From UHGV virus genome UHGV-0175781: a stretch of 44,119 bases of DNA. One strand, written 5' to 3'. A model generated the notes under the pieces. It was not told where the DNA came from and did no database searches. It was given only the letters and a program-made list of their open reading frames with translations. Positions 7,537 to 11,638 of the stretch are shown here, piece after piece (position 1 is the stretch's first letter; each line of letters begins with the position of its first letter). Origin of the DNA: a virus. Made by a program: the position numbers and the translations under genes.

Positions 7537-8259
7537 TTAACGGCGGCGACGTTTACGTGGCGCTTCGTCTTCGTCGTCGTCATCATCTTCGTCATCGCGT
7601 GGCTTACGACGTTTACGAGGTTTTTCATCTTCGTCATCGTCATCACGACGTTTTGACTTTTTGGACTTGCGTGGCACTTCATCTTCGTCGTCGTCGCCCA
7701 GGTCTTCGTCGGAGCAAGAAGATCCGCCACCGCCGAAGGCTTCGCCGTCATCGCGGAAGCGCAGACCCAAAAGACCGGCACCGAGTCCCTTGCCGTTGGT
7801 ATTGTTCCACGCCCAAATATCCAGGGACACGTTGCAATAACAACCGGAGTAGATCTCCTGGCCTTCGATCTCGTCGCCTTCTACGGTCAGACCTTGTTCA
7901 GTCTGCTTCTCGCCGAGTGACGTTTGAATGTTTGGCTGTTTGAACGATTTAGCGTTGATGTACAACATGCCTTCGAATTCTTCGGTTACTTCGTCGCGCT
8001 CGTCACCGTCGCGGACTGCGCATTCCTTAGAATCCTGGGCGTAGTGGCGGTCCATCCACTTATCAGCATTCTTCTCGGATTTCAGCTTGTCGGTGAGCAC
8101 TGCGCGCGCTGCCGCTTCCACTTTGTCCACCTGCGGATCTTCTTTATCAAGAAGAATCACTGCACGGTATGCCGGTTTTTGTCCATCCTGTTTAGGGGTA
8201 TCACGTTCCCAAATTTTAAGGAAACATACGCGCACATTTTTCAGGTTGACTTTAGCCAT
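7537..8259 (-). CDS. ssDNA-binding protein, DUF2815-like, with alternating acidic/basic C-terminal tail (ORF extends to 8280)
   Basis: core IYSGCYCNVSLDIWAWNNTNGKGLGAGLLGLRFRDDGEAFGG matches the DUF2815 phage SSB pattern; C-terminal 60 aa are blocks of DDDDEDE and PRKRRK. Confidence 0.6.
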   Translation of the reverse strand: MAKVNLKNVRVCFLKIWERDTPKQDGQKPAYRAVILLDKEDPQVDKVEAAARAVLTDKLKSEKNADKWMDRHYAQDSKECAVRDGDERDEVTEEFEGMLYINAKSFKQPNIQTSLGEKQTEQGLTVEGDEIEGQEIYSGCYCNVSLDIWAWNNTNGKGLGAGLLGLRFRDDGEAFGGGGSSCSDEDLGDDDEDEVPRKSKKSKRRDDDDEDEKPRKRRKPRDDEDDDDDEDEAPRKRRRR

Positions 8260-8349: not shown

Positions 8350-8592
8350 TCAAGCATTTTCATTAAAAAGATTTCGGGTCACGTAGTTGGTGGCGTTCTC
8401 GATCCAGCTTAGCGGCGGGCGTTCGATGTTATTTTCCACCCAATCGACGGCAACTTCGCTATAGCCGTCATCCAGCCCGCGGGTCGGATGGCGAATCATC
8501 CACGCCACCATTAACACGCCTTGCACGCAATGCAGGATAAAGCCCAGCGCGCCGAGCAAAAACATCAATAAGATTGCGAATACTTTATTCAT
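8350..8592 (-). CDS. small membrane protein
   Basis: 80 aa with N-terminal hydrophobic helix (FAILLMFLLGALGFILHCVQGVLMVAWMI). Confidence 0.5.
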   Translation of the reverse strand: MNKVFAILLMFLLGALGFILHCVQGVLMVAWMIRHPTRGLDDGYSEVAVDWVENNIERPPLSWIENATNYVTRNLFNENA

Positions 8593-10015
8593 TGCTTAAG
8601 TCCTCGTCAGTAGCTTCCGACCACGCAGGGCGAGGGTCGTCGATTGGTGCTAACACCGGTTTGGCTGGTGCGCGTGTGATTTTATCACACAGCTTCGCCC
8701 ACACTTTCGGTTTTTCGTCCTTCAGTACCTTCTCGGCATCCGTAGGGCTGAGCAATGTTTCTTTGTACATCACATCGCGCTTGATCCGGGCCTTCGTGAA
8801 GATTTCAATCACTTCGCTCTCGTCCGCCCACTTACGGATCCCTTCCCTACCGGCAACCATCTTAAGGCCCAACGATTCGCCATCGCCAGCCATGACCGCT
8901 TTGAATACCGCGGACTCGATAGCTTTGATGTGCTGGCGCATTGCGTCAAGTCCTTCATAAGCCTTGCGCAGTTCCGCCGCGCTCATAGCGCCGGGGGTGG
9001 ATTCCTTCTTGCCCCGTTTAGCACGTCTGGCAGCCTTCGGGGCTTCGCGGGCCATATTGCGGTCGTGGTTGGCGCACTCTTCCTCGGTTGCCACGCTCAC
9101 GTCGTCGCCCAGGTCTTCGTCGGTTGCCGTTGGTGGCGTCATCGTGTCGATTGCGGCCTTCGCCCGGACGCGGCACTGGTCCGCGAATCTGCACCACTGG
9201 CACGCATCAATGCTCGGTCGGAAGTCAGCGCGGGTTAGTCCCTTTTTGCCGCGTGCGTACGCATCGAGCGCGGCGATAGCGCGCTTGGACGCAAACTTCG
9301 CGAATATCTCCAGCGCTTCTACCGAAATATCCCACTCCGACGCCCCGCCGCAATACGGCTGGAAGATAACCAGGCGAACGGTCGTAATGTCGTACATAGT
9401 TTGCAGCTTGCGCAGCAGTCCGAGCGCGTACAACATAAGCTGTTTGTTCTCTTTCGCCTCGACCTTATGCCGCCCGGTCTTCAGGTCGCCAACAATCAGC
9501 ATGTACGTCCCATCGGTCTTTTTCATGACCATGACCATATCGGCAGTACCGAACGTTTTAATCCTGTTGCCGTCGATCTCGTAGCCTGAGTGAAGGACGC
9601 GGGTCAGATCGGCGCGCATCTCAAGCTGGACAAACTCCGCCACTTCGAGGAGCGGTCGCCAGTGGTCGATGTACGCGTCGCACTGTTTCACCATGTCGTC
9701 GTTGACCAGTACGCCGCCTTTCGGTGCTTTAGGGTGTGCCTTTACTGGCCCCTTGCCTTCGTTCTCGACGTAGCACCCTTTATACGTCTTCGCGGTTATC
9801 AGCTTCTCACCGGCGATAATGCGGTTTAGCACCACCTCAGATACGGTGTGCATACTCGTACCGTTAATCGCGGCTTGCCCGGATTCGTTCGGGATATCTT
9901 TTTCCACCACCAGGGCGGCAGGGCAACCCATCCATTTTTTAGCACCGGATGGGCCAAGTAATGAGTGTTCCGTATTGCTACCGGATTGCGTTTTACGTTT
10001 TGGTTTAATCGCCAT
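8585..10015 (-). CDS. PD-(D/E)xK Cas4/RecB-like exonuclease (DUF2800-like)
   Basis: 476 aa; N-terminal LLGPSGAKKWMGCP, VGDLKTG motif, C-terminal cysteine cluster CQWCRFADQC typical of Cas4/AddB-type nucleases. Confidence 0.7.
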   Translation of the reverse strand: MAIKPKRKTQSGSNTEHSLLGPSGAKKWMGCPAALVVEKDIPNESGQAAINGTSMHTVSEVVLNRIIAGEKLITAKTYKGCYVENEGKGPVKAHPKAPKGGVLVNDDMVKQCDAYIDHWRPLLEVAEFVQLEMRADLTRVLHSGYEIDGNRIKTFGTADMVMVMKKTDGTYMLIVGDLKTGRHKVEAKENKQLMLYALGLLRKLQTMYDITTVRLVIFQPYCGGASEWDISVEALEIFAKFASKRAIAALDAYARGKKGLTRADFRPSIDACQWCRFADQCRVRAKAAIDTMTPPTATDEDLGDDVSVATEEECANHDRNMAREAPKAARRAKRGKKESTPGAMSAAELRKAYEGLDAMRQHIKAIESAVFKAVMAGDGESLGLKMVAGREGIRKWADESEVIEIFTKARIKRDVMYKETLLSPTDAEKVLKDEKPKVWAKLCDKITRAPAKPVLAPIDDPRPAWSEATDEDLSNE

Positions 10016-10203: not shown

Positions 10204-10455
10204 TTATTTTGTCTCCCAGCGGTCAATTGTTTTTGCTTCGGATGCAACTGCAAAGCGAACATATTCCAGATTGGAGTCCGCCCAAATAAAAAAGTCGGGG
10301 TTAGTAAAGGTGGTGCGCTTAATTTGCGCGGGGGTGTTACGGCGTTTATCTATTACGGCAACGCGTGACTGAAAGCTGCCGATGCGTTCGAATAGCCAAT
10401 AGTACGGGCGCTGGTCGCGGGAATCCACCGCCTCGATTAGCGTGAAGCGTGCCAT
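10204..10455 (-). CDS. hypothetical protein
   Basis: 83-aa ORF with AGAGGA SD. Confidence 0.55.
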   Translation of the reverse strand: MARFTLIEAVDSRDQRPYYWLFERIGSFQSRVAVIDKRRNTPAQIKRTTFTNPDFFIWADSNLEYVRFAVASEAKTIDRWETK

Positions 10456-10467
10456 TGTCTCGTCCTC

Positions 10468-10495
10468 TAAAAATAGGCCCGCAGATTAGCGGGCC
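10468..10495 (-). terminator. hairpin (GGCCCGC-AGATTA-GCGGGCC) plus T-rich run on minus strand, after the first early gene
   Basis: seen in sequence between 10504 and 10455. Confidence 0.4.
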
Positions 10496-10503
10496 GGATA
10501 ATA

Positions 10504-11043
10504 TTAGTCTTCCAGTTCGAAATAGGTTTCGACGATTTCTTTCAGGTCTTTGTGGAAGTCTTCTACGTCGTCATCTTCCAGTTTAGCGATTGATTTGATC
10601 TCGAACGCTTCCAGCAGGTCGTCGAATTCGTCGTTCGCATCGTCGTCATCGCCACCGGCAATAATCGCGGCATACTGTTTGATTTCGTCGCGCATCTCTG
10701 CCAGCGGGTCGGCATCTTTCTTACCTTTGCCTTTCGCTGGTGCTTTTTTACCCTTCGCCGGTTTTTCGTCTTCGTCATCCTCGTCGTCATCCTCTACGAC
10801 TTCTTTTTTAGCCTTACCTTTAGACTTGGTTTCTTTTGCCGCGCCTTTTTTCGTTTTAGGCGTATCTTCGACTTCGTCCTGATCGTAGTCGTCTTCGACT
10901 TCAGTCTCCGGCTTGGCCTTGCCCTTCTTAGCAGTGCCGTTTGCTTTTGGGTCTACGGCAGCGCCAACAGTTTCATAATGTTTAGCGATGGTTTCCAGTG
11001 CTACTACGCCGCGAGTAATCAGGTTTATGAATTGTTCCAACAT
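10504..11043 (-). CDS. highly charged, low-complexity early protein (acidic blocks alternating with lysine-rich blocks)
   Basis: 179 aa; first gene downstream of the near-consensus leftward promoter; GGAGA SD. Confidence 0.6.
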   Translation of the reverse strand: MLEQFINLITRGVVALETIAKHYETVGAAVDPKANGTAKKGKAKPETEVEDDYDQDEVEDTPKTKKGAAKETKSKGKAKKEVVEDDDEDDEDEKPAKGKKAPAKGKGKKDADPLAEMRDEIKQYAAIIAGGDDDDANDEFDDLLEAFEIKSIAKLEDDDVEDFHKDLKEIVETYFELED

Positions 11044-11103
11044 GGTATATCTCCGATTGGTTAAGTTTGGGTGTCCGGGCGGTGTGCCCTGTCGACGAGG
11101 TGA

Positions 11104-11132
11104 ATATTAGATTGGTTGCAGAAGGGAGTCAA
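11104..11132 (-). promoter_or_regulatory. leftward early promoter, near-consensus sigma70 type (-35 TTGACT, 17-bp spacer, -10 TAATAT)
   Basis: read on minus strand; spacer contains TGCAACCAAT motif; about 55 bp upstream of gene 10504..11043. Confidence 0.5.
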
Positions 11133-11142
11133 CAACTAATTT

Positions 11143-11177
11143 AAAAAAAAAAGCGCCGAAGCAAAATGCGACGGCGC
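11143..11177 (-). terminator. strong terminator-like element on minus strand (GCGCCG-13 nt loop-CGGCGC followed by T10)
   Basis: seen in sequence; lies upstream of the leftward promoter, so its role is unclear. Confidence 0.4.
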
Positions 11178-11248
11178 TAACCAATAAGAGACAATGAGAC
11201 GGGAATTATTATTACACGCGTGCGCGCCCGTTTCAATATCCAAAGGAT

Positions 11249-11277
11249 TTGACACCTTGCGGTTTTAGGTGTAGTTT
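11249..11277 (+). promoter_or_regulatory. putative rightward promoter (-35 TTGACA, 17-bp spacer, weak -10 TAGTTT)
   Basis: seen in sequence upstream of gene 11309..11638. Confidence 0.3.
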
Positions 11278-11308
11278 CGTTGGTCATCAACCAACCGGAG
11301 ACAGAATA

Positions 11309-11638
11309 ATGAATATCAACGACGCAATCGAAATGTTAACGAAGACTGTTTGCAGTGAGACAAGCCGGTCATGGGCGTATACCGATGCCGTGGGTGCGGT
11401 GCTATTTGAAATCGAACGTCTGCGACTTACCGAAAAAGAATTGCGCGCCAGGCTGGAATTGCTCAACGGTACGGCGGCGAGCAAGCTGCAGAAGCACAAT
11501 GAAGAAATGGAAGAATACAAAAAACAGGTTATCCGTTTGCGCGCCGAGGGCAAATCTTGGGCGATGATTGCCGAGTTGACCGGAATTAATCAGAGCACAG
11601 TGCGCTCCTGGGTACGCAATAATAAAACTTCCAAATAA
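11309..11638 (+). CDS. HTH DNA-binding protein (candidate regulator or replication helper; ORF extends to 11249)
   Basis: C-terminal helix-turn-helix GKSWAMIAELTGINQSTVRSWV; GGAGA SD before ATG 11309. Confidence 0.6.
   Translation: MNINDAIEMLTKTVCSETSRSWAYTDAVGAVLFEIERLRLTEKELRARLELLNGTAASKLQKHNEEMEEYKKQVIRLRAEGKSWAMIAELTGINQSTVRSWVRNNKTSK

Follow-up and report, generated by a model that had tools for sequence, protein, structure and literature searches.

What purpose is served by a small phage protein in which runs of aspartate and glutamate alternate with blocks of lysine, and whose gene stands at the head of a replication operon? The question is raised by a gene on the minus strand (10504..11043) of the viral genome UHGV-0175781, a stretch of 44,119 nucleotides hereafter called the window. 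The window belongs to a Dhillonvirus, i.e., an Escherichia coli siphovirus: positions 10300-11300 were 80-99% identical to 155 phage records, nearly all of them Escherichia Dhillonvirus, with SSL-2009a and JL1 at about 94-95%. A preliminary description of the locus had proposed that the 179-residue product might be an anti-restriction DNA mimic or a host-takeover factor. We tentatively favor another answer, namely that it may be a stoichiometric adaptor, or mediator, of the recombination and replication machinery of the phage. This reading draws on the architecture of the protein, its conservation, its gene linkage, its abundance in infected cells and a motif that it has in common with SSB, the phage's single-stranded DNA-binding protein; the physical interactions that it entails are all inferred.

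A helix, a block-polyampholyte linker and an acidic bundle

The coding sequence was taken from the list of open reading frames (ORFs), with an ATG start, a match to the phrog_3127 family and 106 clusters of homologues. Seven nucleotides 5′ of the ATG lies a GGAG Shine-Dalgarno (SD) sequence (11051..11054, minus strand), which is kept in 17 Dhillonvirus loci, including those that carry an insertion in the leader. The product contains 28 Asp, 25 Glu, 28 Lys and 2 Arg residues, giving a net charge of -23 and an isoelectric point of 4.45. This computed composition bears out the initial view of a strongly acidic, partly low-complexity protein with D/E runs alternating with K-rich segments. Alignments of 22, 100 and 38 relatives and an AlphaFold2 (AF2) model were concordant in dividing it into three parts.

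The first part, residues 1 to 29 (MLEQFINLITRGVVALETIAKHYETVGAAV; 10957..11043, minus strand), is an amphipathic helix according to both AF2 and the alignments. AF2 places the helix at residues 2 to 23 with a predicted local distance difference test score (pLDDT) of about 65, and in one heptad register hydrophobic residues occupy six of the seven a/d positions. This segment is the best-conserved part of the phrog_3127 family, even among members with 21-35% overall identity; in the alignment of 38 diverse relatives, L8, R11, V13, A15, E17 and A20 are present in at least 90% of members.

The second part, residues 30 to 110 (10714..10956, minus strand), was identified from AF2 and composition as a disordered block-polyampholyte linker with K blocks alternating with D/E blocks, among them the sequence DEDEKPAKGK. 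Its pLDDT is below 50, no secondary structure is predicted, and the whole segment of residues 24 to 112 that is disordered in the model holds 22 K/R. Between residues 31 and 110, 57% of the residues are charged, with a net charge of -0.03 per residue; the kappa value of about 0.45 denotes a degree of charge segregation (z = 7) that none of 2,000 shuffles attained. The charge and disorder profile called for at the outset was thus obtained, and it confirmed a blocky mixed charge. Insertions and deletions make the linker vary in length, so that family members range from 115 to 239 residues, and in distant members its basic blocks are rich in arginine and glycine, similar to RGG (Arg-Gly-Gly) sequences. 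A search for repeats that would point to a tandem-repeat origin of the linker returned only a 12-nt repeat of 1.9 copies.

The third part, residues 111 to 179 (10507..10713, minus strand), is an acidic three-helix bundle with a net charge of -20 in 69 residues. AF2 predicts helices at residues 113 to 130, 134 to 146 and 157 to 175 with pLDDT values of 78 to 90, and the bundle is nearly invariant across Dhillonvirus. Structure prediction, which had been suggested as a check, delivered a confidently folded domain but no significant match to a solved structure. In three relatives of 208 to 212 residues found by the family profile search (P0115, P0116 and P0117), the C-terminal helical domain is tandemly duplicated, as would be consistent with a modular binding domain.

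One resemblance of the bundle is of interest for what follows. The family profile aligned with the C-terminal domain of the 80alpha Sak protein (PDB 8qe9, residues 136 to 195) across all three helices, with a probability of 72% and an E value of 3.5e-5 in a pairwise hhalign comparison, and none of 20,000 composition-matched shuffles reached the real score. In PDB-wide comparisons the same match was not significant (E values of 0.45 with the full profile in hmmsearch and 1 with a profile of the C-terminal domain), and Foldseek independently listed 8qe9 at rank 12 with an E value of 1.5. We regard the resemblance as weak, and homology as a lead rather than as proven. The C-terminal domain of Sak is a flexible helical bundle that Sak requires to cooperate with the C-terminal tail of SSB; efficient annealing needs both (PMC11846896). 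An annealase core of the Rad52, RecT or Erf fold was found in the 179-residue protein neither by Pfam nor in the AF2 model, the N-terminal part being a single helix.

A family without functional annotation

The protein matches phrog_3127 from end to end (E value of 1.2e-50, residues 1 to 179 against profile positions 1 to 178 of 178), as do 38 of 38 diverse relatives. This PHROGs family carries no functional annotation, and a literature search returned nothing on it. Pfam gave only noise for the protein (BUD22, DUF6669 and low-complexity families), and the best match in a sequence search of the PDB had an E value of 0.25, with no significant match to a solved structure.

The 106 homologue clusters, obtained by a word-indexed search, are essentially all on Dhillonvirus contigs of 44-45 kb, and an exhaustive profile search collected 48 clusters at 50% identity, none of which departs from this architecture. 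With one of these as the query (P0118), tblastn matched 251 phage records (Salmonella, Escherichia, Kagunavirus, Serratia, Enterobacter and others), which correspond to Jerseyvirus, Kagunavirus and other Guernseyvirinae. The distant members P0110 and P0142 gave no matches in tblastn or pattern scans, and their contexts were found by exact look-up. The family member of Salmonella phage MB78 was named "13.88 kDa late protein" by its depositors, and several records copy the name; a literature search returned no account of what the name is based on. The member P0156 links the family to two more uncultured phages by way of their first genes (probability of 93% in a targeted hhalign comparison). Direct profile comparison with ORF3 of phage Enc34 was not significant, and a relationship to that protein is tentative, being suggested only through P0156 as an intermediate (targeted E value of about 1e-5).

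The gene is linked to a DUF2800 nuclease

The gene, called the first early gene in the preliminary description, opens a leftward replication operon. On the minus strand of the window, the order is the gene for the 179-residue protein, a terminator, genes for 83- and 62-residue proteins, the gene for a DUF2800 protein, an 80-residue gene, the SSB gene, a 56-residue gene and polA; a helix-turn-helix (HTH) protein and a primase-helicase are encoded divergently. The DUF2800 protein (8585..10015, minus strand; Pfam DUF2800 E value of 1.5e-66) is a nuclease of the PD-(D/E)XK type and a proposed functional partner. The other proposed partner, SSB (7540..8259, minus strand), was recognized from its translation as a DUF2815 protein of the T7 gp2.5/Enc34 type, and all of its homologues match PF10991. 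The duf2800-gp2.5-polA set has been described as a module that is conserved whether the phage host is Gram-positive or Gram-negative, and gp2.5/DUF2815 proteins are classed among the annealases (PMC8093625; PMC5686142).

The same order, i.e., family gene, small ORFs, DUF2800, small ORF, SSB, small ORF and PolA, is found in the Dhillonvirus Oekolampad, and this layout is also annotated in Jerseyvirus Ent1 and in phiEap-2. Besides Dhillonvirus, Jerseyvirus and phiEap-2, nine distant contexts have the family gene or a positional analogue just upstream of DUF2800, with zero to two small ORFs between the two genes in all informative contexts. The linkage holds for each of the seven informative metagenomic relatives, which are 21-35% identical (P0110, P0142, P0133, P0136, P0152, P0156 and the L020 duplicate): the family gene is immediately 5′ of DUF2800, with at most one small ORF between them. 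Downstream of DUF2800, the metagenomic contexts carry an Enc34-type SSB and/or, at the position of PolA, a gene for a protein of 670 to 750 residues in which Pfam calls DNA_pol_A in some contexts only. In Enc34 and in two phages found via their SSBs, the first gene occupies the same position and likewise encodes a helix, a basic disordered region and a helical C-terminal domain.

A charge pattern in common with the SSB tail

The SSB of the window has a C-terminal tail (7540-7731, minus strand) that its translation and kappa identify as another block polyampholyte. It ends in DEDEVPRKSKKSKRR-DDDDEDEKPRKRRKPR-DDEDDDDDEDEAPRKRRRR, with RKRRRR at the very terminus, and includes the peptide DEDEKPRKRRKPR and three copies of DEDE[VKA]PRK. 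With a kappa of about 0.58 (z = 9.7), it is blockier than the linker of the 179-residue protein. Among the 285 ORFs of at least 50 codons in the six frames of the window, only these two proteins have extreme mixed-charge segments, and they are also the only ones with the pattern [DE]3-x0-2-P-x0-1-[KR]-x0-1-[KR] (DEDEKPAKGK in the former, DEDEKPRKRR in SSB, with DEDEKP[AR]K common to both). The 179-residue protein is itself not an SSB: AF2 predicts no beta structure, PF10991 is not matched, and the phage SSB is encoded by a separate gene.

Nearly all of 120 listed SSB homologues have repeated acid-Pro-basic tails, most of which end in an arginine run; two look frameshifted and lack acidic residues. 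The number of repeat units in the SSB tail varies even among close relatives, and both the linker and the tail evolve through gain or loss of repeat units. Recent exchange of DNA between the two was considered and rejected, the nucleotide similarity being that of GAY/GAR codon repeats only. The tail of T7 gp2.5 is purely acidic, and so is that of Enc34 ORF6, unlike the tail of the window SSB. In the two lineages with a purely acidic SSB tail (L026 and Enc34), the linker of the family member or analogue is not blocky, and its C-terminal domain is less acidic.

Some further features of these sequences were observed. A distant SSB homologue (P0268) ends in DDEIPF. The SSB tail opens with a [ST]-x-[DE]-[DE]-D-L sequence (S-DEDLGDD; TDDDLGDD in most homologues), which recurs inside the DUF2800 nuclease (TATDEDLGDD; gene at 8585-10015, minus strand) and at its extreme C terminus (ATDEDLSNE* in the window, VTEEDL* in Ent1 and VSDDDLSN* in phiEap-2). 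It could be a docking motif shared by the two proteins for a common partner.

Expression signals and abundance in infected cells

A promoter-like site of the sigma-70 type with a near-consensus sequence, P2 (TTGACT-17-TAATAT; 11104..11132, minus strand), lies upstream of the gene and is invariant or nearly so in the 17 Dhillonvirus loci. It had been singled out as the best promoter of the window; the site exists, but with 9 of 12 consensus positions in our scan it is surpassed by three sites at 10 of 12. The attenuator-like hairpin reported 3′ of the gene was found as well. Scanning and folding identified an intrinsic-terminator-like hairpin and U-tract (10466..10495, minus strand) between the gene and that of the 83-residue protein: the hairpin GGCCCGC-TAATCT-GCGGGCC (10495..10476), with seven G-C pairs and a 6-nt loop, starts 8 nt past the stop codon and is followed by TATTTTT. 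It is kept in 15 of the 17 Dhillonvirus loci, and the annotation of Jerseyvirus Ent1 likewise has a terminator immediately past the family gene. From the gene's own promoter, its strong SD sequence and the terminator that precedes the next gene, we predict that its product is made in larger amounts than the nuclease, SSB or the polymerase.

Published proteomic data support the prediction of a high dose. In E. coli cells infected with Dhillonvirus vB_EcoS-EE09 (EE09) at a multiplicity of infection of 5, only four phage proteins were detected at 25 min, CDS29, CDS40, CDS56 and CDS61 (PMC10673088). One of the four is the orthologue of the 179-residue protein (EE09_56, 73% identity, annotated as a long form), and another is the orthologue of SSB (EE09_61, 89% identity). 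CDS56 is absent from the 24 proteins of EE09 cell-free lysates, which include CDS61 (PMC10673088), and this absence indicates that it is not a virion component. A literature search for Dhillonvirus or Jerseyvirus transcriptomes found none.

A proposed helper of recombination and replication

The module that such an adaptor would serve comprises the DUF2800 exonuclease, the gp2.5-type SSB/annealase and the family A DNA polymerase, to which the 179-residue protein would be an abundant accessory. Its N-terminal helix would mediate oligomerization or anchor the protein to a conserved partner. The acidic C-terminal bundle would serve for docking, much as C-terminal domains do in single-strand annealing proteins, and would address basic surfaces; the likeliest are those of the nuclease and/or of the SSB tail, with its tip and its arginine/lysine blocks. 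The linker would contribute lysine blocks that bind either DNA or the acidic blocks in the tail of SSB. Through such multivalent electrostatic contacts, the nuclease and the SSB/annealase would be tethered to each other and to DNA ends, and the protein would be a stand-alone counterpart of what the C-terminal domains of Red-beta and Sak do for their annealases. To our knowledge, a free-standing combination of helix, polyampholyte linker and acidic bundle encoded before an exonuclease-annealase pair has not been described previously.

In a more ambitious version of the adaptor model, to which we give a slim chance, the protein and the SSB tail would constitute a sticker-and-spacer system. The nuclease, the SSB/annealase and DNA would co-condense electrostatically into a membrane-less compartment for replication and recombination in a small siphovirus, with the 179-residue protein as the dedicated scaffold. 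The repeated acid-Pro-basic units and the acidic bundles, which are duplicated in some relatives, would drive the process.

Several points weigh against an adaptor. Its partners, SSB and the nuclease, were inferred from gene order and sequence composition only, and the shared charge patterns could reflect a common mutational or compositional drift of disordered regions and not an interaction. About eight lineages underlie the co-variation of the family with the type of SSB tail, and the trend is not clean, in that two loci (L028 and L029) combine repeated acid-Pro-basic SSB tails with positional analogues in which the strict motif is missing. In three others (L021, L023 and L025), no Enc34-type SSB was called beside the nuclease. 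The C-terminal domain of lambda Red-beta showed no similarity to the family in hhalign. Finally, a dose above that of the nuclease would equally suit a decoy or an inhibitor.

The last point leads to the first of the alternatives, an inhibitor of host nucleases like lambda Gam or T7 gp5.9. According to this explanation, the acidic domain, oligomerized through the helix, mimics DNA and blocks RecBCD or another end-processing nuclease, so that linear phage DNA and recombination intermediates would be protected. Mimicry of nucleic acid by the 69-residue C-terminal domain, directed at a nuclease, is possible given its net charge of -20, and the gene is directly upstream of the phage exonuclease in every informative context. 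The arrangement has parallels: T7 gene 5.9 precedes the exonuclease gene 6, and in lambda gam adjoins bet and exo and is transcribed before both. We noticed no recognizable Gam-type gene in the scanned parts of the window, a weak argument as these take in only a minority of the small genes. However, comparison of the family with lambda Gam by hhalign gave an E value of 0.25 and a probability of 0.2%, there was no Pfam match, and no phage nuclease inhibitor figured among the PDB sequence matches listed (best E value of 0.25). A conserved K/R-rich linker, RGG-like in distant members, would be unexpected in a DNA mimic. RecBCD is present at some ten copies per cell, and so scarce a target would not call for one of the four most abundant phage proteins. 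We therefore consider this type of inhibitor unlikely, even though it is the strongest competitor of the adaptor.

The same linkage can be read differently, with the DUF2800 protein of the phage itself as the target. The 179-residue protein would then be an immunity-like acidic regulator or inhibitor that occupies the DNA-binding site of the nuclease until the right substrate or time. Its invariable adjacency to DUF2800 fits, and so does the dose expected to exceed that of the nuclease because a terminator intervenes; barstar and the colicin immunity proteins are likewise small, acidic and helical. Against these points, neither sequence nor fold links the protein to immunity proteins, and the disordered basic blocks and the motif shared with SSB are left without explanation. 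This reading, which we deem quite unlikely, overlaps with that of an adaptor, and sequence analysis cannot separate the two.

Host takeover, as envisaged in the preliminary description, would have the acidic domain bind RNA polymerase or a nucleoid protein (H-NS or HU) and thereby redirect transcription or unsilence phage DNA. T7 Gp2 and gp5.5 and T4 AsiA and Arn are precedents for phage proteins directed at RNA polymerase or nucleoid proteins. High abundance would suit the titration of abundant nucleoid proteins, no RNA polymerase is encoded among the phage genes examined and the promoters look like those of the host, and the MB78 member bears the depositors' name of a late protein, as noted above. 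Conversely, no similarity was found to known phage proteins that bind RNA polymerase or H-NS, the Foldseek matches to T4 gp33 and to sigma regions being noise. Such a function would also not explain why the gene is strictly linked to a nuclease and not to regulatory genes, or why its product has a motif in common with SSB. Taken together, these arguments make it improbable.

The other function first proposed fares worst: an Ocr- or ArdA-type mimic that would be the first product of the infection and would block BREX or restriction-modification of type I (or another type). Ocr is a general precedent for an acidic anti-restriction mimic, and an acidic product, a strong promoter and the first place in an operon with sigma-70-type promoters would all agree with it. 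We nevertheless judge it very improbable: the gene is a core, syntenic member of a nuclease-linked replication operon across genera and not a variable counter-defense gene, no Pfam or structural match to Ocr or ArdA was obtained, and, in place of a rigid, wholly folded and uniformly acidic surface resembling B-DNA, only about 60 residues (113 to 175) are confidently folded and are preceded by a disordered linker that makes up half of the protein and whose lysine/arginine blocks resemble nucleic-acid or acidic-tail binding and not mimicry. The reservation that mixed charge makes the function uncertain and a pure DNA mimic doubtful was thus well placed, with K/R blocks beside acidic runs in the linker. 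As indirect evidence, the Dhillonviruses of the BASEL collection, which carry the family gene (for example Oekolampad and TheodorHerzl), are reported to be sensitive to type I and type II restriction-modification in comparison with Queuovirinae (PMC8594841). Identity with Ksap1, the Dhillonvirus trigger of KpAvs2, was also considered and rejected, as Ksap1 is a different, 74-residue gene (PMC11564622).

The regulatory region upstream of the gene

The 265-bp intergenic region between the 179-residue gene and the divergent genes contains three promoter-like sites and one terminator, and its conservation across Dhillonviruses exceeds that of the 179-residue coding sequence. In addition to P2, it holds a site directly upstream of P2, P1 (TTGAAA-17-AATAAT with an extended -10 TG; 11236..11208, minus strand), which scores 10 of 12, and a divergent site (TTGACA-17-TAGTTT; 11249-11280, plus strand) upstream of the genes for the HTH protein and the primase-helicase.

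About 24 nt after P1 come a strong hairpin and ten consecutive T (terminator at 11143-11177), so that the segment 11141-11236 (minus strand) constitutes a terminated transcription unit of about 58 nt. The unit is nearly invariant in the 17 Dhillonvirus loci and is annotated as a 36-codon coding sequence in some records (bas18_0049 and EE09_55). It could encode a small RNA, act as a decoy in regulation or yield a primer or origin transcript. Rfam recognized no family in the window or in Oekolampad, at either gathering or E-value thresholds. The 5′ end of this RNA is complementary to the SD sequence of the 179-residue gene and to the start of the 83-residue gene, with duplexes of -18.0 and -16.1 kcal/mol. 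A role as a specific regulator was rejected, as these duplexes are unexceptional, more than 15 other sites in the genome reaching -18.8 kcal/mol or better; the complementarity arises because copies of an AACCAAT motif occur in both orientations.

The spacer of P2 is filled by the sequence GCAACCAAT (11111-11119, minus strand), of which 14 exact copies are present in 44 kb against about 0.3 expected. The further positions listed are 1606, 1623, 4565, 13925, 13979, 14014, 14296, 14386, 14417, 15209, 23947, 23961, 40695 and 43811. The sites are intergenic, often paired or palindromic, and mostly oriented toward downstream genes. This element may be an operator or a phage-specific promoter element, for which the divergently encoded 109-residue HTH protein (11309-11638; matches to Sigma70_r4_2 and HTH_23) is a candidate reader.

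In 12 of the 17 Dhillonviruses (L001 and 11 other loci), about 135 nt are inserted into the 5′ leader between the promoter and the SD sequence; the window lacks this insertion (around 11071-11088). The insertion is open and in frame, giving rise to the annotated long forms of 231 to 239 residues (P0001, P0015, bas18_0048 and EE09_56). Conservation of the SD sequence and of the MFEQ start argues that it is leader RNA rather than coding sequence; it had no match in Rfam.

At the gene's opposite end, the loop of the terminator occurs across Dhillonviruses in two mutually reverse-complementary versions, CTAATCTG and CAGATTAG, as if the hairpin had been inverted (variants in L004, L006, L011, L015 and L016). 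In two phages, an extra ORF that begins a few bases past the stop codon replaces the terminator; L007 and L017 are cited with these observations on the loop or the extra ORF.

Significance and comparison with known systems

The duf2800-gp2.5-polA cassette is among the most widespread replication and recombination cassettes of tailed phages, and in a large group of enterobacterial siphoviruses a phrog_3127 protein is the product that comes first and is probably made in the largest amount. These phages include Dhillonvirus, Jerseyvirus, Kagunavirus and other Guernseyvirinae and, tentatively, Enc34-like and many uncultured phages. As an adaptor, if that is its role, the protein would turn a two-component recombinase made up of an exonuclease and an annealase into one of three components, and it would account for the unusual arginine-tipped, repeat-built SSB tails of these phages. 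It would also be relevant to recombineering tools and to defense systems that sense phage SSBs or recombinases. If it is instead a nuclease inhibitor, it would represent a new structural class of such inhibitors.

With Ocr (T7 gp0.3) and ArdA, the protein shares a very acidic character and a gene that comes first in an operon behind a host-type promoter; it differs from them in its mixed charge, its approximately 60 folded residues and the core place of its gene in the replication operon, and no homology to them was found. Its likeness to T7 gp5.9 and lambda Gam is that of a small, acidic, helical protein encoded beside a phage exonuclease and transcribed earlier. In contrast with both, it has a long disordered linker of basic and acidic blocks and is highly abundant, and neither sequence nor structure shows similarity.

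Sak and, in function, Red-beta offer another parallel, in that a small, flexible alpha-helical bundle follows a disordered connector in a protein of a phage recombination module. In Sak, a Rad52-like protein of the DUF1071 family, the bundle belongs to the annealase itself, whereas that of the 179-residue protein follows an N-terminal helix and a polyampholyte linker, and it is far more acidic than the C-terminal domain of Sak.

The tails of SSBs are likewise disordered and highly charged, as in T7 gp2.5 and Enc34 ORF6, where they are acidic, and in the linker and tip of E. coli SSB. Segments of this type serve protein-protein contacts in replication and recombination (PMC5686142). The 179-residue protein differs from SSBs in having no oligonucleotide/oligosaccharide-binding (OB) fold and in the location of its charged segment, which lies within the chain between two folded or helical elements. 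Its acid-Pro-basic pattern, however, is the very pattern of the phage's own SSB tail.

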